The translations under genes and the position numbers were made by a program. From the NCBI GenBank assembly GCA_045545475.1, contig JAZQAZ010000008.1, forward strand, positions 64,001-128,000: DNA of 64,000 bases. Direction: 5' to 3'. The stretch comes from Clostridia bacterium (GTDB lineage Bacteria; Bacillota; Clostridia; CAKSNL01; HGM11501). The notes beneath the pieces are model-generated. The model saw only the letters and a list, made by a program, of their open reading frames with translations, did not search any database and had not been told where the DNA came from. Below, piece by piece: positions 3,815 through 13,165 of this stretch (position 1 is its first letter; each line of letters begins with the position of its first letter).

Positions 3815-4741
3815 TTAATCGAACATTTCGCTTGAAAGATAACGCTCGCCGGTATCTGGAAGCAAAACAACAATGGTTTTACCATCGTTTTCAGGACGCT
3901 TTGCAAGGGTGAGAGCCGCAAACAAAGCAGCTCCGGAGGATATACCCGATAAAACGCCTTCTTTTTTAGAAAGGAAGTTTCCCATTTCATAAGCCTCTTC
4001 GGTTTTCACGGTTATTACTTCGTCGTAAATGCTTTTGTCAAGTGTATTTGGAATGAAATTTGCACCGATTCCCTGAATTTTATGAGGGCCGGCTTTTCCT
4101 TCTGATAAAAGAGGGGAGTCAGTAGGCTCTACGGCCACTACTTTAATGGTGGGATTTTTTTCCTTAAGGTATCTTCCGGTTCCGCTTAAAGTTCCGCCGG
4201 TACCTACGGCAGAAACAAAGATATCAACTTTACCTTCGGTATCTGTATAAATTTCCGGTCCTGTTGTACGGTAATGAGCATCGGGATTTGCCTTGTTTTC
4301 AAATTGCGAAGGGATAAAACTTCCTTCTATTTCCTTTGCGAGTTCCTCTGCTTTTTCGATGGCACCTTTCATGCCTTTTCCGCCATCGGTAAGATAAAGT
4401 TCTGCCCCGTAGGCTTTTAATAAATTCCGGCGTTCTATACTCATGGTGTCCGGCATGGTTAATATTACTCTGTAGCCTTTAACCGAACCAAGGCAGGCAA
4501 GCCCTACACCAGTGTTTCCGCTGGTGGGTTCAATTATAACTGAACCTTCCTTTAATAAACCTCTTTCCTCGGCATCTTTAATCATTGAAAGAGCAACTCT
4601 GTCCTTTGCACTTCCTGCAGGATTGAATGATTCAAGCTTTGCGAGAACTTTTGATTTAAGGGAATACTCCTTCTCGAGACGAGTAAGCTCCAAAAGAGGC
4701 GTTTTTCCGATTAACCCTTCGATTGTTTGATAAATATTCAT
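3815..4741 (-). CDS. cysK: Cysteine synthase A
   Basis: NPAGSAKDR (PLP lysine), EPTSGNTG, GTGGT, HKIQGIG, PDTGERYLS. Confidence 0.95.
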   Translation of the reverse strand: MNIYQTIEGLIGKTPLLELTRLEKEYSLKSKVLAKLESFNPAGSAKDRVALSMIKDAEERGLLKEGSVIIEPTSGNTGVGLACLGSVKGYRVILTMPDTMSIERRNLLKAYGAELYLTDGGKGMKGAIEKAEELAKEIEGSFIPSQFENKANPDAHYRTTGPEIYTDTEGKVDIFVSAVGTGGTLSGTGRYLKEKNPTIKVVAVEPTDSPLLSEGKAGPHKIQGIGANFIPNTLDKSIYDEVITVKTEEAYEMGNFLSKKEGVLSGISSGAALFAALTLAKRPENDGKTIVVLLPDTGERYLSSEMFD

Positions 4742-4774
4742 AAAATTACCTCCTTAAGATGTGTACTTTTAAAG

Positions 4775-4803
4775 TTTATCACTTAAAAATTTCTTTGTCA
4801 ATT
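4775..4803 (-). promoter_or_regulatory. SigA-type promoter for cysK-metQNI
   Basis: Minus strand TTGACA-17 nt-TAAACT, followed by an AAGGAGG RBS. Confidence 0.7.
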
Positions 4804-4868
4804 GCATTTTGTGGCAAAATTGCACAAAGTACATGCCGTTGCAATGGCAATATTGGCAAATATGCCGA

Positions 4869-4897
4869 TTGAAAGGATGACGCAATTATTGTATAAT
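4869..4897 (+). promoter_or_regulatory. SigA-type promoter for the aro leader and operon
   Basis: TTGAAA (4869)-17 nt-TATAAT (4892). Confidence 0.75.
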
Positions 4898-4926
4898 TAT
4901 ACGAAATATGAAAGGGGATGCCGCAA

Positions 4927-5094
4927 ATGACTAAAATGATGAGAAAATCAGGTAAAAGTGCGGTATCTTTATGCGAAAATGCTGTTAAAGACACTTTTTT
5001 TGAAGTGTCTTTTTTTGCATGCTTCCGATTTTTTTACTACTATTATTTTATGAACAATATGTGCCGAAAAGTTAAAACTGCTGTAATGGTTTAA
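4927..5094 (+). CDS. Putative Phe/Tyr-rich attenuator leader peptide (55 aa)
   Basis: Translated by hand: MTKMMRKSGKSAVSLCENAVKDTFFEVSFFACFRFFYYYYFMNNMCRKVKTAVMV*; SD AAAGGGG at 4911-4917; alternative in-frame ATG at 4918; lies directly upstream of pheA. Confidence 0.78.
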   Translation: MTKMMRKSGKSAVSLCENAVKDTFFEVSFFACFRFFYYYYFMNNMCRKVKTAVMV

Positions 5095-5140
5095 TTAAAG
5101 TTATTTCAGCGTTTTCGCTTTTCGGCGGAAACGCTTTTAT
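5063..5140 (+). promoter_or_regulatory. Attenuator: terminator 5108-5140 and competing antiterminator 5063-5083/5107-5126
   Basis: Terminator AGCGTTTTCGC-TTTTCG-GCGGAAACGCT-TTTAT; GCCGAAAAG (5063-5071) is complementary to CTTTTCGGC (5118-5126), and AAAACTGCTG pairs with CAGCGTTTT with one bulge. Confidence 0.78.
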
Positions 5141-5163
5141 ATTTTCTGAAAGGTTTTGATACG

Positions 5164-6270
5164 ATGAATAAGCTTGATATTGCGAGAAACGAGATTAATG
5201 AAATAGATAAGGAAATGGCATCCCTCTTCGAAAGAAGAATGAAGGCAGCTAAAATGGTAGCTGAATATAAAAAGGAAAACGCACTTCCTATTTTTGATTC
5301 GGGAAGAGAAGCTTTTCTGATAGATAGAAACTCTTCATATATAGAGGATGCGGTGCTTAAGGATTACTATGTTGAATTTATAAAAAGCACTATGGATATT
5401 TCAAAATCCTATCAGAGAAGGCTGCTTGACGGTATGCGGGTAGCGTATTCGGGAGTTCCGGGGGCTTTTGCCCATATTGCGGCAAATAAAATTTTCGACA
5501 GTGCAAACCCGATTGCTTATGACAGCTTTAAGTCAGCGTACGAAGCTGTTGAAAAAGGCGAATGTGACTGTGCGGTGCTTCCCATCGAAAACAGCTATGC
5601 AGGCGACGTTGCTCAGGTTATGGATATAGCATTTTTCGGATCCCTTCATATAACAGGGATATATGATCTTGAGGTAAGCCATAATCTCCTTGCTAAAAAA
5701 GGCACAAACAAAGGCGATGTTAAAAAAATAATAAGCCATTCTCAGGCATTAAGCCAGTGTGCAGGATATATTGAAAAGAATAATCTTTTAAAGGAAGAAG
5801 CTACAAATACAGCGGTTGCGGCAAAGACGGTTGCGGAATCTTGCGATAATACTCTTGCGGCAATAGCAAGCAAGGAAGCGGCATCTCTTTACGGCCTTAC
5901 GGTAATTGAAGAAAATATTAATCAGAGTGCCAACAATACCACACGTTTTGCTGTGTTTTCAAGAAGCACCGGTAAAGAAAATAAGGGTAATAATCATTTC
6001 GTATTTTTCTTTACGGTTAAAAACGAGGCAGGTGCCCTCGGTAAGGCAATTTCAGTAATCGGAAAATATGGATTTAACTTAAAGGCGTTAAAGAGCCGTC
6101 CCACAAAAGAGCTTATCTGGGATTATTATTTCTTTGCAGAAGGCGAAGGCGAAATTAACGGAGAAAACGGAGATAAGATGCTTTCCGAGCTTAAAGAAAG
6201 TTGTAATGAAATTAAGGTTGTGGGAAGCTTTGCCAATGAAATCCTGTTAAGAGAGAAGGATAATAAATGA
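5164..6270 (+). CDS. pheA: Bifunctional chorismate mutase/prephenate dehydratase
   Basis: N-terminal CM type II domain (RNEINEID), LPIENS, SHSQALSQC, NTTRF, ACT domain with SRP. Confidence 0.92.
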   Translation: MNKLDIARNEINEIDKEMASLFERRMKAAKMVAEYKKENALPIFDSGREAFLIDRNSSYIEDAVLKDYYVEFIKSTMDISKSYQRRLLDGMRVAYSGVPGAFAHIAANKIFDSANPIAYDSFKSAYEAVEKGECDCAVLPIENSYAGDVAQVMDIAFFGSLHITGIYDLEVSHNLLAKKGTNKGDVKKIISHSQALSQCAGYIEKNNLLKEEATNTAVAAKTVAESCDNTLAAIASKEAASLYGLTVIEENINQSANNTTRFAVFSRSTGKENKGNNHFVFFFTVKNEAGALGKAISVIGKYGFNLKALKSRPTKELIWDYYFFAEGEGEINGENGDKMLSELKESCNEIKVVGSFANEILLREKDNK

Positions 6271-7271
6271 GTCTTTATATGAATCTCGGAAAAGACAGTT
6301 ATGATATAATTATAGAACGCGGAGCCTTAGCTAAGGCTGGTGAATATTTTGATCTGGACAGAAAAGTACTTGTTGTAACCGACTCAGGCGTTCCCGAAGA
6401 ATATGCAAAAACTGTTGCAGAAAAGGCAAAGGATGGCTATATTGTTACATTTCCCCAGGGTGAAGAAAATAAAAACTTTGAAACCTACAAAACCGTTTTA
6501 AGTGCTCTTACGGAAAATGGCTTTACGAGAACAGACTGCGTTGTTGCGGTAGGCGGCGGAGTTGTGGGAGATTTAGCGGGCTTTGCAGCTGCAAGCTACA
6601 TGCGAGGAATTGATTTTTACAACATCCCCACAACCGTGCTTTCTCAGATTGATTCTTCAATCGGCGGTAAAACTGCTATTGATTTTTACGGATACAAAAA
6701 TATAATCGGAGCATTTCATCAGCCGAAAAAGGTTATAATCGACGCCGATGTAACAAAAACCCTTACGAAAAGACAAATCGTATCGGGACTTGCAGAAGCC
6801 GTTAAAATGGCAGTTACAAGCGATAAGGAACTTTTCTCTATTTTTGAAAACGGCGACTATGAAGAGCGTTTTGATGAAATAATCGAAAAATCCCTTATGA
6901 TTAAAAAAGCGGTGGTCGAAGAGGATGTGGATGAAAAGGGGCTTCGTAAGGTTCTTAATTTCGGTCACACAATAGGCCACGCCATAGAATCAAATGCGGG
7001 ACTCGGAAGTCTTTATCACGGCGAATGTGTCGCACTCGGAATGCTTTATATGGCGGATAAAGAAGCGAGAGAAAGAATATTTAATGTGCTTAAAAAGCTT
7101 GGACTTCCCACAAAGGCAGAGTTTGATAAGGACGAAATAATAAATACAATAAAGCACGACAAAAAAGCATCGGGAGACAAGATTACGGTTATTTACGTTA
7201 AAGAAATCGGAAGCTTTGAAATGAGAAAAATTGATATATCTGAGCTTTACGGATATATAAATGAGGTTTGA
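6267..7271 (+). CDS. aroB: 3-dehydroquinate synthase
   Basis: GGGVVGDLAGF, PTTVLSQIDSSIGGKT, LNFGHTIGHAIE, HGECVA. Confidence 0.95.
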   Translation: MSLYMNLGKDSYDIIIERGALAKAGEYFDLDRKVLVVTDSGVPEEYAKTVAEKAKDGYIVTFPQGEENKNFETYKTVLSALTENGFTRTDCVVAVGGGVVGDLAGFAAASYMRGIDFYNIPTTVLSQIDSSIGGKTAIDFYGYKNIIGAFHQPKKVIIDADVTKTLTKRQIVSGLAEAVKMAVTSDKELFSIFENGDYEERFDEIIEKSLMIKKAVVEEDVDEKGLRKVLNFGHTIGHAIESNAGLGSLYHGECVALGMLYMADKEARERIFNVLKKLGLPTKAEFDKDEIINTIKHDKKASGDKITVIYVKEIGSFEMRKIDISELYGYINEV

Positions 7272-7273
7272 TT

Positions 7274-8365
7274 ATGAAAAATACATTTGGTGATAACATA
7301 ACCCTTACGGTTTTCGGAGAAAGCCACGGAAGTGCCATAGGCGTTATCATTGACGGTCTTGCCCCGGGAATTAGCGTTGACGAGGAAAAAATAGCGTATA
7401 AGCTTCTTTTAAGGAGACCTTCAGGCGGTATTTCCACATCAAGGGTTGAAGCGGATAGATTTAAGATTGAAAGCGGAGTGTACGAGGGAAAGACAACCGG
7501 AACACCCGTTACAATTATAATTCCCAACGAAAACACAAAAAGCGGTGATTATAAGGCAACGGAAAACCTTGCAAGACCTGCCCACGCCGATTACACGGCT
7601 TATATGAAATATCACGGCTTTGAGGACAGACGTGGCGGCGGTCACTTCAGCGGAAGAATAACCGCAGGGATTGTTGCGGCAGGTGCAATTTTTATAAGTG
7701 CCCTTGAAAACAAAGGTATATATATCGGAACTCATATGAAAAAGTGTGCAGGAGTTTCGGACAGAGAATTTTCTGATCTTACAGAAGACGTTAAAAAGCT
7801 CGTGAATATGCGTTTTCCCGTTTTATCAGAGGAAGCAGGAAGCTTAATGCAGGAAAAAATCATGCAGGCAAGAGAAGATAAGGACAGCGTCGGCGGAATA
7901 CTGGAAACGGCAATCATCGGCGTTCCCGCAGGCCTTGGAGAGCCTTATTTTGACAGCATCGAAAGTAAAATTTCCCACGCCATGTTTTCAATCGGCGGAG
8001 TTAAAGGCATCGAATTCGGAAAAGGCTTTGCTCTTTCGGATATGACGGGAAGCGAGGCAAACGATGCCTTCAGAATGGATAATGGCGTTGTTATAACAGA
8101 AACCAACAACAACGGCGGAATAAACGGCGGTATTACAAACGGAATGCCCATTTTATTCTCACTTGCCGTAAAGCCTACACCTTCCATATTCAGAGTGCAG
8201 AAAACTGTGGACTTCGTAAAAGGCGAGGACGCGGAGATTGAACTTAAGGGCAGGCACGATCCTTGTATCGTCCACAGAGCAAAAAGCGTAGCAGATGCAC
8301 TTTCAGCATTTGTCATTGCCGATGTACTTACGGGACGCTACGGAACGGACTATCTGGCAGATTAA
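7274..8365 (+). CDS. aroC: Chorismate synthase
   Basis: FGESHG, RPAHADY, RGGGHFSGRITA, KPTPSI, GRHDPCI. Confidence 0.95.
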   Translation: MKNTFGDNITLTVFGESHGSAIGVIIDGLAPGISVDEEKIAYKLLLRRPSGGISTSRVEADRFKIESGVYEGKTTGTPVTIIIPNENTKSGDYKATENLARPAHADYTAYMKYHGFEDRRGGGHFSGRITAGIVAAGAIFISALENKGIYIGTHMKKCAGVSDREFSDLTEDVKKLVNMRFPVLSEEAGSLMQEKIMQAREDKDSVGGILETAIIGVPAGLGEPYFDSIESKISHAMFSIGGVKGIEFGKGFALSDMTGSEANDAFRMDNGVVITETNNNGGINGGITNGMPILFSLAVKPTPSIFRVQKTVDFVKGEDAEIELKGRHDPCIVHRAKSVADALSAFVIADVLTGRYGTDYLAD

Positions 8366-8379
8366 TTTGGAGGAAGAAA

Positions 8380-9615
8380 ATGCAGTACGGTTGTATAGGT
8401 GAAAAGCTTGGTCACAGCTTTTCAAAGGAAATTCACGGTAAAATTGCCGATTATGAATACGAACTTAAGGAGCTTAAAAGGGAAGATGTTGCTTCCTTTA
8501 TAATGGGACGATGCTATAAAGCCCTTAATGTTACTATTCCTTATAAAGAGGTGGTAATCCCTCATCTTGACGAAATTGACCAGGCGGCAAGAAAAATCGG
8601 TGCGGTAAACACAATAGTAAATAAAGAAGGCAGACTATACGGATATAATACGGATTTTTACGGTATGATGGAACTACTTTCTTATATCGGTGTAGCTCTC
8701 GAAAATAAAAAGGTGCTGATACTCGGTACCGGCGGCACAAGCAGAACAGCTTATGCATTAGCTGAACACCTTAAGGCAAGAGAAATTATAAAGGTATCAC
8801 GAAGCGAAAAGGACGGAGCTGTAAGCTATGAGGCGGCATATCGCAATCACTATGATGCAGAAGTCATAATAAATACAACGCCCTCGGGAATGTACCCAAA
8901 TTCTGAGGAGGCTCCAATTTCACTTGATACATTTACAAAGCTTGAAGGCGTAATTGATGCAATTTATAACCCCTTAAGAAGTAATCTTATATCAGAAGCG
9001 TTAAGGCGAGGAATAAAGGCATCCGGCGGGCTCTATATGCTGGTTGCCCAGGCTGTTTTGGCATCAGAATATTTCCTTGATACCAAATATCCTGAATCGC
9101 TTTTGAACGAGGTCTATAAAGATATACTTTCTGAAAAAGAAAACATCGTTCTTGTGGGAATGCCGGGGGCAGGCAAAACCACAATCGGTAAAATACTTGC
9201 TGAAAATCTAGGTAAAACCTTTATGGATTCCGATGATGAAATAAAAAAGAGCGGGAAGACGCCCGATGAAATAATTAAAAGCCGTGGTGAAGCGGCATTC
9301 AGGGATATTGAGGCGGAAACTATAAAAAATCTTTCCGATAAAAACGGTCTTGTCATAGCAACAGGCGGCGGAGCGGTATTAAGAGAAGAAAATATAAAAA
9401 GACTTAAAAGAAACGGAAAAATCGTTTTCCTTGACAGAGATTTAGCTGATATTCTTCCAACTCCTGACAGACCCTTATCCCAAAACAGAGAGCTTCTTAA
9501 AAAGCGCTATGATGAACGTTTACCCATTTATACTTCTGTTTCGGATGTTGAAGTAAAAATCGGAAACGATGCAAATGAAAATGCAGAAAATATTATAAAA
9601 ATGCTTAGAGGTTAA
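8380..9615 (+). CDS. aroE: Shikimate dehydrogenase-shikimate kinase fusion (AroE-AroK)
   Basis: HSFS, NVTIPYK, GAVNT, NTDFYG, then GMPGAGKTT, ATGGG and RPL kinase motifs; ATG at 8380 after GGAGG. Confidence 0.9.
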   Translation: MQYGCIGEKLGHSFSKEIHGKIADYEYELKELKREDVASFIMGRCYKALNVTIPYKEVVIPHLDEIDQAARKIGAVNTIVNKEGRLYGYNTDFYGMMELLSYIGVALENKKVLILGTGGTSRTAYALAEHLKAREIIKVSRSEKDGAVSYEAAYRNHYDAEVIINTTPSGMYPNSEEAPISLDTFTKLEGVIDAIYNPLRSNLISEALRRGIKASGGLYMLVAQAVLASEYFLDTKYPESLLNEVYKDILSEKENIVLVGMPGAGKTTIGKILAENLGKTFMDSDDEIKKSGKTPDEIIKSRGEAAFRDIEAETIKNLSDKNGLVIATGGGAVLREENIKRLKRNGKIVFLDRDLADILPTPDRPLSQNRELLKKRYDERLPIYTSVSDVEVKIGNDANENAENIIKMLRG

Positions 9616-9619
9616 AGCT

Positions 9620-10069
9620 ATGAAAATACTTGTAATTAACGGCCCCAACTTAAATATGCTGGGAATAAGAGAACCTGATATTTACGGAAAATCCACCTAT
9701 AAGGATCTAACCGATATGATAGAAGATTACTGCAAGGAAAAGAATGTAGAGGTTAAGTGCTATCAGTCAAACCATGAGGGGGCACTGGTTGACGAAATCC
9801 AGTCAGCCTACGGCTCAAAGGACGGAATTGTAATAAACCCCGGTGCTTACACCCATACAAGTGTGGCGTTGCTTGATGCCCTAAAGGCAGTCGGCATTCC
9901 TGCAGTTGAAGTGCACATCTCAAAGGTTGACGAAAGAGAGGACTTCAGACAGATAAGCTATATAAGAAACTACTGCGAAAAAACCATAACCGGCCTTGGC
10001 TTTGACGGATATATAAAGGCAATTGAGTATTTAATTGAAAGGGACGGTAAAAATGATAGCGGAAATTAA
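9620..10069 (+). CDS. aroQ: Type II 3-dehydroquinate dehydratase
   Basis: NGPNLNMLGIREPDIYG, QSNHEG, INPGAYTHTS, EVHIS. Confidence 0.95.
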   Translation: MKILVINGPNLNMLGIREPDIYGKSTYKDLTDMIEDYCKEKNVEVKCYQSNHEGALVDEIQSAYGSKDGIVINPGAYTHTSVALLDALKAVGIPAVEVHISKVDEREDFRQISYIRNYCEKTITGLGFDGYIKAIEYLIERDGKNDSGN

Positions 10070-11252
10070 AAAAGGAGCTTTATCCGGAACGGTTAAAGCA
10101 CCGCCATCAAAAAGTATGGCACACCGCCTGATAATTTCTGCGGCACTGTCAGAGGGAGAAAGCAGGATAAGCAATGTCGCACTATCTGAGGATATAAAAG
10201 CCACAATCGGATGTATGGAAGTCCTGGGTAAAACGGCGATTTACAATGACGGAGTGCTTACCGTTAAGGATGCGGAAATTCCTTCGGGCGATAAAAAACT
10301 TTTCGTAAACGAAAGCGGAAGTACGCTTCGGTTTTTCACCCCCCTTTGTCTGACCGGCGATGAGGTCACATTATACGGAAGCGAAAGGCTTTTTGAAAGA
10401 CCGCTTGCCGTATATGAAGAAATTTTTGAGCGTCAGGGAATCTTCTTTGAAAAGGGAAAGGGTTACTTAAAGCTCAAGGGCAAGCTTGAGGGCGGAAGCT
10501 ATGAAATAAGAGGCGATATAAGCAGCCAGTTTATAACAGGGTTACTTTTTGCATTGCCGATACTTTCCGGCGACAGCGAAATTAAAATAACCGGTAAATT
10601 TGAAAGCAAAAGCTATATTTTAATGACGCTTTCGGCACTAAAAACTTTTGGTATAGACATTTATTTTGACGGCGACAGAGTCTTTAGGATAAAAGGCGGA
10701 CAAAGCTATAAAAGCTGTGATGCCGAAGTTGAAGGGGACTGGTCAAACGCGGCATTTTTCGAAGCCTTAAATTACCTTGAAAGTAATGTATTTGTCATGG
10801 GAGTTGACGAAAATTCACTTCAAGGCGATAAAATATGTAAAAAGTATTTTGAAGATATAAAAAACGGTAAAAAGGAATTGTCCTTAGCTGATTGCCCCGA
10901 CCTTGCACCCATACTTTTCACCGTAGCGGCATACCTTGGCGGAGCAGAATTTACCGATACCGCAAGACTTAAGATAAAAGAGTCTGACAGAGCGGAGGTT
11001 ATGAAGGAGGAGCTTTCAAAGTTCGGAGCGGAAATTTTAGTTTTTGAGAATTCCGTAACGGTTAAAAAGAGTGACCTTCATTCGCCAAGTGCTCCCTTAA
11101 ACAGCCATAATGACCACAGAATTGCAATGAGTCTGGCGGTTTTATCCACCGTTTACGGCGGCATAATCGAGGATGCGGGAGCGGTAAAAAAGAGTATGCC
11201 TGACTTTTATGAAAAGCTTGCAGCATTAGGAGCAAAGGTGGAATTGAAATGA
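10053..11252 (+). CDS. aroA: 3-phosphoshikimate 1-carboxyvinyltransferase (EPSP synthase)
   Basis: PPSKSMAHR, ESGSTLRF, SSQFITG, RLKIKESDR, HNDHRIAM. Confidence 0.94.
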   Translation: MIAEIKKGALSGTVKAPPSKSMAHRLIISAALSEGESRISNVALSEDIKATIGCMEVLGKTAIYNDGVLTVKDAEIPSGDKKLFVNESGSTLRFFTPLCLTGDEVTLYGSERLFERPLAVYEEIFERQGIFFEKGKGYLKLKGKLEGGSYEIRGDISSQFITGLLFALPILSGDSEIKITGKFESKSYILMTLSALKTFGIDIYFDGDRVFRIKGGQSYKSCDAEVEGDWSNAAFFEALNYLESNVFVMGVDENSLQGDKICKKYFEDIKNGKKELSLADCPDLAPILFTVAAYLGGAEFTDTARLKIKESDRAEVMKEELSKFGAEILVFENSVTVKKSDLHSPSAPLNSHNDHRIAMSLAVLSTVYGGIIEDAGAVKKSMPDFYEKLAALGAKVELK

Positions 11253-12106
11253 TAGTAGACGTAAGTAAAAAAATACTGATAGTGGGACTCGGTCTTCTTG
11301 GCGGAAGCTATGCAAGGGTACTAAAAAGATTCGGGTTTCATATTTCGGCAATAACGAAGGAGCAAAGCTCCATCGATTATGCCCTTAATGAAGGGATGAT
11401 TGATGAAGGAACAACTCACCTTGACGAAAGAATAATAGGCGAGGCTGACCTTGTGATATTTGCCCTTTATCCCCATGTATTTATTGAATGGATAGAAAAA
11501 AATCAGAAGCTTTTAAAAAGCGGAGCGACTATAACGGACGTAACCGGTGTAAAGAGAAGCATCGTTTATAAAATTCAGGATATGCTTCGTGACGATGTTG
11601 AGTTTATAGCTGCACATCCTATGGCGGGGCGTGAAGTGTCTGGCGTTGAAAACAGCACCGATAAAATGTTTGCTGGAGCAAACTATATCGTTACGCCTAC
11701 GGATAAGAACAGCCCTGAGGCAATTAACACCTGTCTTGAGCTCGGAAGGCTTTTAGGCTTTTCCAACGTAACAACTCTAAGCCCAGAAGAACACGATGAA
11801 ATGATAGGCTTCCTTTCCCAGCTTACACATTGTATCGCAATCACACTTATGACCTGCAACGATAAAGAGGATATGGAAAAATTCACGGGTGACTCCTTCA
11901 GGGATTTAACCAGAATTGCCCGCATCAATGACCTTATGTGGAGCGAGCTTTTTTTAGCAAACAAAGATGCTCTTCTTTCCCAGATGGATATGTTTATAAA
12001 TAAATTCAATGAGCTTAAAACAATGCTTGAAACTGAGGATATTGACGCTATGAGAGAAATGATGCGTCATTCCACAAGCCGCAGAGCATTATTTGACAAA
12101 AAATAA
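11249..12106 (+). CDS. tyrA: Prephenate dehydrogenase
   Basis: GLGLLGGS, DVTGVK, HPMAGRE, EHD, SFRDLTRIA. Confidence 0.92.
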   Translation: MIVDVSKKILIVGLGLLGGSYARVLKRFGFHISAITKEQSSIDYALNEGMIDEGTTHLDERIIGEADLVIFALYPHVFIEWIEKNQKLLKSGATITDVTGVKRSIVYKIQDMLRDDVEFIAAHPMAGREVSGVENSTDKMFAGANYIVTPTDKNSPEAINTCLELGRLLGFSNVTTLSPEEHDEMIGFLSQLTHCIAITLMTCNDKEDMEKFTGDSFRDLTRIARINDLMWSELFLANKDALLSQMDMFINKFNELKTMLETEDIDAMREMMRHSTSRRALFDKK

Positions 12107-12133
12107 AACACAATTTGAAAGGACGTATTTATT

Positions 12134-13165
12134 ATGAAAAACATGAACTTCTTAAGAAAATTACCCATTCCTATGGATATAAAGGCACAGTACCCCATAA
12201 CTCCCGAAATGGAGAAAATCAAAGCTGACAGAGACGAGGAAATTAAAAAGGTTTTCACAGGCGAATCCGATAAATTCATTCTTGTAATCGGTCCCTGCTC
12301 TGCGGATGATAAAACCGCAGTTATGGATTATATCGGAAGACTTAAAAGGGTGGAGGAGCAGGTTAAGGATAAAATCATAATCATCCCCAGAATTTACACA
12401 AACAAGCCCAGAACAACAGGAAGCGGCTATAAGGGAATGCTTCATCAGCCCAATCCCGAGGAAAAGCCCGATATGCTTAAGGGTATCGTTGCAATAAGAG
12501 ATATCCATATGACGGCGTTAAAGGACTATGGCTTCTCCTGTGCGGATGAAATGCTTTATCCTGCAAACTACCGTTACCTTTCTGACCTTCTTGCATATGT
12601 TGCAATCGGTGCACGTTCCGTTGAAAATCAGGAACACAGACTTGCCTCCAGCGGATTTGACGTTCCCGTTGGTATGAAAAACCCCACAGAGGGTGACTTC
12701 TCTATTATGATGAATGCAATAAATGCCGCACAGCACGGCCATACCTTCATCTACAGAGGATGGGAAGTTGAGACAGCAGGTAACCCCCTTGCACACGCAA
12801 TACTCAGAGGCTATATGGATAACTACGGAAGAAGTCTTCCCAACTATCACTATGAAGACCTTGAAAGACTTGACGAAGCATATAAGAAGGACGGTCTTTT
12901 AAATCCTGCGGTTATTGTTGATACAAACCACGCAAACTCCGGCAAGAAATATCTTGAGCAGATTCGTATTGCAAAGGACGTTTTATACAGCTGTTCAAAG
13001 AATTCCGACATCAAGAAGCTTGTTAAGGGCCTAATGATTGAAAGCTATATTGAAGACGGTGCACAGAAGATTGGAGAAAACGTTTACGGTAAGTCTATTA
13101 CAGACCCCTGCCTCGGTTGGGAAAAGACCGAAAAGCTCATCTTAGACCTTGCAGACGAGCTTTAA
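12134..13165 (+). CDS. 3-deoxy-7-phosphoheptulonate (DAHP) synthase, class I
   Basis: GPCSAD, KPRTTGSGYKG, IGARS, GMKNPT, DTNHANS, YGKSITDPCLGW. Confidence 0.93.
   Translation: MKNMNFLRKLPIPMDIKAQYPITPEMEKIKADRDEEIKKVFTGESDKFILVIGPCSADDKTAVMDYIGRLKRVEEQVKDKIIIIPRIYTNKPRTTGSGYKGMLHQPNPEEKPDMLKGIVAIRDIHMTALKDYGFSCADEMLYPANYRYLSDLLAYVAIGARSVENQEHRLASSGFDVPVGMKNPTEGDFSIMMNAINAAQHGHTFIYRGWEVETAGNPLAHAILRGYMDNYGRSLPNYHYEDLERLDEAYKKDGLLNPAVIVDTNHANSGKKYLEQIRIAKDVLYSCSKNSDIKKLVKGLMIESYIEDGAQKIGENVYGKSITDPCLGWEKTEKLILDLADEL

Follow-up and report, generated by a model that had tools for sequence, protein, structure and literature searches.

Leader-peptide attenuation of pheA is a classical mode of control in the Gammaproteobacteria. 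In the pheL–pheA system of Escherichia coli and other Gammaproteobacteria, a leader open reading frame (ORF) rich in phenylalanine (Phe) codons is followed by a terminator and a competing antiterminator upstream of pheA, and the position of the ribosome decides between the two. The same architecture is found in a 64,000-nucleotide stretch of DNA from a Clostridia bacterium (contig JAZQAZ010000008.1; hereafter the window), in which a leader ORF carrying both Phe and tyrosine (Tyr) codons precedes a pheA operon. This leader differs from pheL in its length (55 codons, not about 15), in the mixing of Phe with Tyr codons, in the eight-gene pheA–aro–tyrA operon that it precedes and in having no match to Phe_leader or any other Rfam family at E ≤ 10. 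In addition, its RNA folds as the antiterminator when free of ribosomes, and an extra hairpin followed by seven U residues (U7) lies inside the ORF. An earlier note on this DNA had proposed a dual attenuator responding to Phe and Tyr. Comparative evidence and RNA folding support that proposal, and the leader is probably a ribosome-mediated transcription attenuator sensing charged tRNA-Phe and tRNA-Tyr.

The same note had regarded leader-peptide attenuation as a proteobacterial classic, which stands, although predicted cases exist on the Firmicutes side as well (PMC9413887, PMC2864571, PMC8632094). Histidine (His) leader-peptide attenuators have been predicted in the Bacillus cereus group, Peptostreptococcaceae and Erysipelotrichales (PMC9413887). 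As described there, they resemble the present leader in combining a leader ORF with regulatory codons and terminator/antiterminator hairpins at an operon without a T-box or repressor, and they are likewise computational predictions only; they differ in having three to five consecutive His codons, and in operon and taxa. The element uORFC-13-1, a Phe-encoding upstream ORF before aroF, is reported from Acholeplasma and environmental sequences (24 sequences; PMC8632094). Its host lineage is related to the Firmicutes. It is set apart from the window's leader by its text description only, which places it in another lineage and before aroF and, in the part consulted, mentions no Tyr codons (PMC8632094). 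The Leu/phe leader of Lactococcus lactis (Rfam RF01743), a catalogued Firmicute leader element, is described as confined to that species (PMC2864571), and its model has no match at the window's leader. Searches of the open-access full-text literature brought up no account of a clostridial leader peptide with Phe and Tyr codons ahead of pheA. The mechanism is most likely a classical one in an uncatalogued family, whose distinguishing traits are the mixture of Phe with Tyr codons, the length of the ORF, and a hairpin with U7 inside the ORF together with a second switch that is antiterminated by default. The principle is textbook knowledge and the surprise is moderate.

The Phe/Tyr Leader and Its Predicted Folding Switch

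The leader is headed by a sigma-70-type promoter, TTGAAA–17 nt–TATAAT (4869–4897, plus strand), with 11 of 12 consensus matches, from which transcription would start near 4904. The Shine-Dalgarno site AAAGGGGAU (4910–4918, plus strand, read from the sequence) stands 10 nucleotides (nt) 5' of an ATG at 4927. Another ATG in the same frame, at 4918, is only 1 nt beyond the GGGG core of that site, which makes 4927 the likelier start. From there the leader ORF runs for 55 codons plus TAA (4927–5094, plus strand; MTKMMRKSGKSAVSLCENAVKDTFFEVSFFACFRFFYYYYFMNNMCRKVKTAVMV) and ends 69 nt 5' of pheA. Promoter, Shine-Dalgarno site and ORF agree with the earlier note; the ORF, which the note had missed in its ORF track, is listed at 4918–5094 (58 aa) when the minimum length is 40 aa. 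The regulatory codon block FFEVSFFACFRFFYYYYF (4996–5049, plus strand) contains the 8 Phe and 4 Tyr codons in 18 that the note had counted.

Downstream of the ORF lies the intrinsic terminator T2 (5108–5145, plus strand), a stem-loop of 12 pairs at 5108–5135 (−16.6 kcal/mol) followed by UUUAUAUUUU. The competing antiterminator (5062–5127, plus strand) has a core formed by 5062–5083 with 5107–5127 (about −27 kcal/mol, z = −6.1). Its 3' arm is made up of the 5' arm and loop of the terminator, and its apical part contains the stop codon of the leader ORF (5092–5094). Both the terminator and the pairing that breaks it had been suggested before and are upheld by these calculations.

For the folding of translated states, the ribosome footprint was removed, that is, the RNA up to 15 nt beyond the first base of the A-site codon, and the remainder was folded to position 5135. 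Nine Phe or Tyr codons (4996–5047) were tested as the A site; on each of them the antiterminator forms and none of the 12 terminator pairs is present; with the ribosome at the stop codon, all 12 form in silico. In these folds the antiterminator reaches −27.7 kcal/mol and the terminator −16.9 kcal/mol. The contrast that the earlier note had drawn between a stalled ribosome and one at the stop codon is thus reproduced by RNA folding. Five of the six close leaders described below behave in the same way; in L023 the terminator wins.

A ribosome loading at 4927 would, when Phe or Tyr is scarce, stall within 4996–5049. The stall would free 5062–5083 to pair with 5107–5127, which would block T2 and permit read-through into pheA–aroB–aroC–aroEK–aroQ–aroA–tyrA–aroF. 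When both amino acids are plentiful, the ribosome would reach the stop codon at 5092, unwind the antiterminator and cover its 5' arm, so that T2 would form and transcription would end. The sequence elements, their conservation, the codon pattern and the in silico switch are observed; translation of the leader ORF, stalling on it and the ensuing read-through are inferred.

As a whole, the leader is far more stable in folding than shuffled sequences are (z = −4.96). Its minimum-energy fold consists of a helix P1, a hairpin 1 and the long helix 5062–5127. The first two had been overlooked in the earlier note, as had the antiterminator fold of the ribosome-free RNA. Helix P1 (4914–4970, plus strand) pairs 4914–4925 with 4959–4970 (−20.4 kcal/mol, z = −5.6); it masks the Shine-Dalgarno core and places the AUG in its loop. 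Once 4959–4970 is transcribed, P1 would hide the Shine-Dalgarno site and could limit each leader to one ribosome, or a single round of translation. Hairpin 1 (4987–5012) and the U7 that follows it (5013–5019) lie inside the ORF (4987–5019 together, plus strand; 11 pairs, −11.9 kcal/mol, z = −4.6).

A DNA search over 60 related genomes returned the full-length leader from 5 of the 11 other members of the genus, and from no other genus, at identities of 92, 92, 80, 77 and 76%; the remaining matches were chance matches of 23–72 nt. In the six aligned leaders the promoter hexamers, the Shine-Dalgarno site, the ATG, GCGGTATCTTTATGC, hairpin 1 and the terminator are invariant or nearly so. Both hexamers are unchanged in 6/6, together with the adjacent upstream ATGCCGA, and the Shine-Dalgarno site is retained as AAGG(A/G)GAU in all six. 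In T2, 100% of cells are paired and 11 of the 12 pairs are invariant. The 17 core pairs of the antiterminator are present in every leader, with three wobble-type changes, and its apical part is not conserved. The P1 core GAUGCCG/CGGUAUC is invariant, with no compensatory changes.

The coding frame is kept as well. The leader ORF is open for 53–55 codons in all six sequences, and each other frame has 3–6 stops. Both indels within the ORF are of 3 nt, and the sole 1-nt indel of the alignment lies 5' of the Shine-Dalgarno site. Over the N-terminal 22 codons, variable columns number 11, 12 and 12 of 22 at codon positions 1, 2 and 3. Given this equal variation, the N-terminal peptide sequence does not appear to be under selection, and only the frame is kept. 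In the F/Y block (F/Y denoting Phe or Tyr codons) the corresponding counts are 2, 6 and 8 of 18, and the second-position changes are T–A swaps that exchange Phe and Tyr. Variants such as ACFRFFYYYYF, AFFNLFYYFYF, AFFNLFYYYYF and AYFRFFYFYFF always total 12–13 F+Y of 18, so that all six leaders of the genus conserve the F/Y run. Selection for a Phe or Tyr codon at these places would produce such a pattern, which is not the one expected of a folded protein or of RNA alone. Furthermore, public DNA contigs yielded one strain variant (3 of 4 runs) and one near-identical copy. The variant has 16 differences in 341 bases and no indels, and none of the 16 falls in F/Y codons, hairpin 1 or T2. Among 23 listed runs no RNA run contains this DNA, and the organism is known only from assembled genomes.

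F/Y-Rich Leaders Before pheA in Other Clostridia

A wider comparison started from a PheA search with one genome per species. The best 80 of 97 confirmed loci were taken, 78 of which have at least 300 nt upstream; the named records closest to them are metagenome-assembled genomes (MAGs) of uncultured Clostridia, Acutalibacteraceae, Oscillospiraceae and Ruminococcus. Each locus was scored by the best 12-codon window within 300 nt 5' of pheA. At least 7 F/Y of 12 codons are reached in the sense direction at 11/78 loci, in antisense at 1/78 and in the 300 nt lying 600–900 nt upstream at 0/77. With a threshold of at least 6 of 12 the figures are 21/78, 5/78 and 3/77, all to be read with the proviso that the species are related and the loci are not independent.

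Judged by eye, the F/Y leader ORFs form four or more classes without sequence in common. In each of them a promoter-like site, a Shine-Dalgarno site and a start codon are accompanied by a hairpin and U run on the 3' side. Class A comprises the window's leader, L021–L023, G007, G009, L035, L040 and L061, with ORFs of 53–83 codons. Class B (L093–L095) carries ...AVRFFSYCFFYYFYYF..., and class C (L047, L028, L034 and L057) has short ORFs of 18–26 codons, e.g., MLSNNYFYYFYFNN.... The members of class D (L058, L067, L070, L074, L100 and L043) share FARFYAGFY, a conserved peptide that could reflect RNA structure or an arrest sequence. Class D, from Ruminococcus-like MAGs, also has a common terminator, GCGGUUCUG...CAGAGCCGC. 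More than 200 nt separate the leader from pheA in L070, L074 and L100, and this interval contains additional GC-rich hairpins.

Many of the 78 pheA loci are without an F/Y ORF. An Rfam scan of 20 of the 80 loci, chosen for lacking one, gave no matches, and a crude regular expression for the T-box core matched none of the 80. A metagenome scan with a 29-nt degenerate pattern (hairpin 1 and the following block) returned eight loci, all of them chance matches that are accompanied neither by an F/Y leader nor by pheA.

Attenuation by a leader peptide requires that a ribosome keep close behind the RNA polymerase. That such leaders have arisen repeatedly and independently at the pheA operons of gut Clostridia speaks for functional coupling in this group, which is of interest because transcription and translation are reportedly uncoupled in Bacillus subtilis. 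Gene callers and Rfam miss these leaders: a protein search with the window's leader peptide returned only two matches, gene callers' products in a collection of 5.8 billion proteins, and no Pfam family match. Therefore, the regulation of aromatic amino acids in abundant, uncultured bacteria of the gut and rumen at present goes unannotated.

The Internal Hairpin and the Competing Explanations

Hairpin 1 with its U7 looks like a terminator or a pause site. It is present with its U tract in all class A leaders (eight, seven distinct), where 97.4% of cells are paired; one pair varies on both sides (A–U to G–C) and six on one side, a covariation score reached by 18 of 500 shuffles. The encoded residues vary while the pairing persists (TFFEVS, ASFGVS, TPCGVS). 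In the window, Phe codons occupy both the loop (4996–5001) and the U tract (5011–5016). Class B leaders L093–L095 have their own 8-bp hairpin (−11.9 kcal/mol) and U7 at the same place, again with Phe codons in loop and tail, and mirror hairpin 1 without sequence similarity.

The element poses the question of how the attenuator copes when untranslated RNA defaults to read-through. Hairpin 1 might pause or terminate the polymerase unless a ribosome that has begun at 4927 melts it, which would synchronize the two machines, and hairpin plus U7 may in this way take the place of the classical 1:2 pairing. The trp leader of E. coli offers a parallel, in that an early hairpin could hold RNA polymerase for the ribosome and the leader's ribosome-binding site is occluded after the first round. 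The present hairpin differs in being followed by U7, which gives it the look of a full terminator, and in having no pairing with the 5' arm of the antiterminator; for the latter reason it cannot act as an anti-antiterminator. A tentative and rather doubtful extension is that two terminators work in series, hairpin 1 and U7 serving as a checkpoint for ribosome-less polymerases and the second terminator reading Phe/Tyr stalling, so that only ribosome-escorted polymerases would get to T2. If true, this two-terminator design would be a built-in means of forcing transcription–translation coupling in a phylum whose model organism reportedly runs uncoupled, and the identical placement of hairpin and U7 in class B, whose leaders are unrelated, would indicate that the checkpoint logic had evolved convergently.

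Several observations weigh against a leader-peptide attenuator. In six-frame translation of the source genome (2,739,205 bases, about 59% A+T), 110 12-codon windows contain at least 8 F/Y codons and 15, the leader's among them, reach the maximum of 9, so that the leader's F/Y content is matched elsewhere in the AT-rich genome. By our own arithmetic, about 8e-4 windows with 9 of 12 would be expected in one 300-nt stretch of one strand. The composition alone is therefore uncommon, not unique, and is suggestive rather than decisive; the comparative data carry the argument. Furthermore, 4 of the 8 Phe codons are supplied by hairpin 1, from its U-rich loop and the U tract behind it, and part of the Phe richness is for this reason a by-product of RNA structure. 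The antiterminator fold of the ribosome-free RNA departs from the classical attenuation model, and no anti-antiterminator (1:2) pairing that would terminate untranslated transcripts was found in the leader. In the six close leaders the pairs of antiterminator and T2 are kept and compensatory changes number zero, all variation being absent or of the wobble type; stem covariation, to which the earlier note had also looked, is here uninformative and neither supports nor contradicts the two helices. Finally, in two members of the same genus, G005 (L109) and G008 (L110), pheA directly follows a SIS-domain gene, presumably RpiR-like by its motif, and has no leader. Their PheA proteins are 66–67% identical, and the arrangement suggests a different mode of control.

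A further difficulty comes from the folding of other leaders. The stall and stop states were folded for 13 of the 22 candidate leaders, with classes C and D mostly outside this set. By minimum free energy, only 5 of these 13 lose the terminator in the stalled state, and none of the 7 distant ones does so; L023, L035, L040, L061, L093, L094 and L047 keep between 10/11 and 13/13 terminator pairs when stalled, and L095 keeps 11/19. A purely thermodynamic switch is thus found in silico only for the window's own subgroup, and because the stalled-state terminator persists in the other leaders, their switch would have to be kinetic. The RNA was then folded as it stands before the terminator 3' arm is made, with shuffled upstream sequence as control. 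In the window's leader, 11 of the 12 bases of the terminator 5' arm pair with the 3' part of the ORF before the 3' arm exists. The fraction paired upstream is 11/12 for G000 (the genome of the window), L023, G007 and G009, which shuffles reach in 1–4%, 10/12 for L061, 11/13 for L093 and L094, 10/11 for L095 and 8/11 for L040; it falls to 1/11 for L035 and 3/18 for L047. With the stall position corrected, L035, L040 and L061 share CAGU(U/A)CCGC just 3' of the F/Y run, which pairs with the terminator GCGGUUCUG over 9, 9 and 10 of 11 bases. For these three leaders the antiterminator pairing is no better than in shuffles (0.31, 0.27 and 0.16), which also counts against the attenuator.

One rival reading is an RNA structure operated by a protein or small ligand, riboswitch-like or in the manner of TRAP or PyrR, with the ORF an accident of U-rich hairpins and their tails. 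The leader folds far better than shuffles, several stretches, GCGGUAUCUUUAUGC and hairpin 1 among them, show no nucleotide variation, the pairing of hairpin 1 outlasts changes in its encoded residues, and four Phe codons derive from its loop and U tract. However, U tracts do not explain the Tyr codons (UAU/UAC), the frame is kept in 6/6 leaders with 3-nt indels only, and the interchange of Phe and Tyr preserves the F+Y count. Moreover, unrelated leaders before pheA have in common only the design of F/Y-rich ORF and terminator, and no Rfam family matches. A ligand- or protein-operated switch accordingly appears unlikely.

The peptide itself might also be the sensor. TnaC arrests the ribosome in response to tryptophan, and the conserved GVSFFxFFRFF could similarly stall the ribosome on free Phe or Tyr, leaving the downstream switch unchanged. 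VSFF-x-FF-R/N-F/L-F is kept across class A, distant members included, another class has FARFYAGFY in common, and leaders of 55–83 codons are long for a plain codon counter. Against this, the conserved residues coincide with conserved RNA, namely hairpin 1 and its U tract, and are explained without a role of the peptide; the classes are alike in composition, not in sequence, and the short ones (18–26 codons) carry only the F/Y run. Nascent-peptide arrest is on these grounds quite improbable. A stand-alone small protein, for instance a membrane-associated peptide with its own terminator and an incidental place before pheA, would account for the good Shine-Dalgarno site, the 55 codons, the aromatic-rich hydrophobic middle and the resemblance to the two gene callers' products. 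It is the hardest to credit of the explanations considered, since the N-terminal half has no codon-position bias, Pfam gives no match and only two database proteins match; in addition, the stop codon sits within an antiterminator that competes with the terminator, and leaders of this design but with unrelated peptides stand before pheA in other genomes.

Operon, T-Boxes and Upstream Region

The eight contiguous genes downstream (5164–13165, plus strand) were assigned by Pfam and NCBIfam matches, in agreement with the aromatic operon named in the earlier note. They abut or overlap in the order pheA (chorismate mutase–prephenate dehydratase–ACT), aroB, aroC, an aroE–aroK fusion, aroQ, aroA, tyrA and a gene for an AroFGH-type DAHP synthase, and a simple scan found no terminator-like site after 13165. 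The fusion joins shikimate dehydrogenase and shikimate kinase in a single ORF (8263–9615) and likely starts at an ATG near 8380, past the aroC stop.

No T-box had been seen at the leader, and the Rfam models bear this out. At E ≤ 10, neither T-box (RF00230) nor Phe_leader nor Leu/phe leader is among the eight matches over 4400–5600, the best of which (E = 0.17) is a terminator-shaped artefact, and the whole window gives no match at gathering level. Elsewhere in the same genome the T-box model has seven matches, four above the cut-off, all on other contigs. One, of 86.5 bits (below the gathering score), precedes pheS (TIGR00468) at G000:C47:19556-19830 (L112); another, of 68.9 bits (likewise below it), precedes trpB (TIGR00263) at G000:C6:22487-22711 (L113), and the five others precede other genes. 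With T-box matches before pheS and trpB and none here, tRNA-sensing RNAs would serve those genes and a different device the pheA–tyrA operon.

A crude scan of the same genome for other single-amino-acid leader ORFs (63 small ORFs) found nothing convincing. By eye, which is a weak way of judging downstream genes, only the pheA leader precedes an amino acid biosynthesis gene. At G000:C2:98566 (plus strand) there is an ORF of 22 codons that has a Shine-Dalgarno site and several Leu codons in a row, MAEPQELMLALLLLLFINRLAC. Its end lies 36 nt 5' of a 139-aa ORF, which we take to resemble ribosomal protein S12; this run is probably due to chance.

The intergenic stretch that holds the leader (4742–5163) is bounded by the divergent cysK (3815–4741, minus strand) and by pheA (5164–6270). 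A sigma-54 promoter considered at 4820–4835 was dropped, its GG–GC spacing, read from the sequence, being too short. The part shared with cysK (4742–4868) contains repeated TGGCAA/TTGCA words and, directly 5' of the −35 hexamer, the palindrome-like GGCAAATATGCC. The left half of this palindrome is not invariant in the six leaders, whereas ATGCCGA beside the −35 hexamer is the invariant motif noted above, and the region may contain a site for a regulator or act like an UP element.

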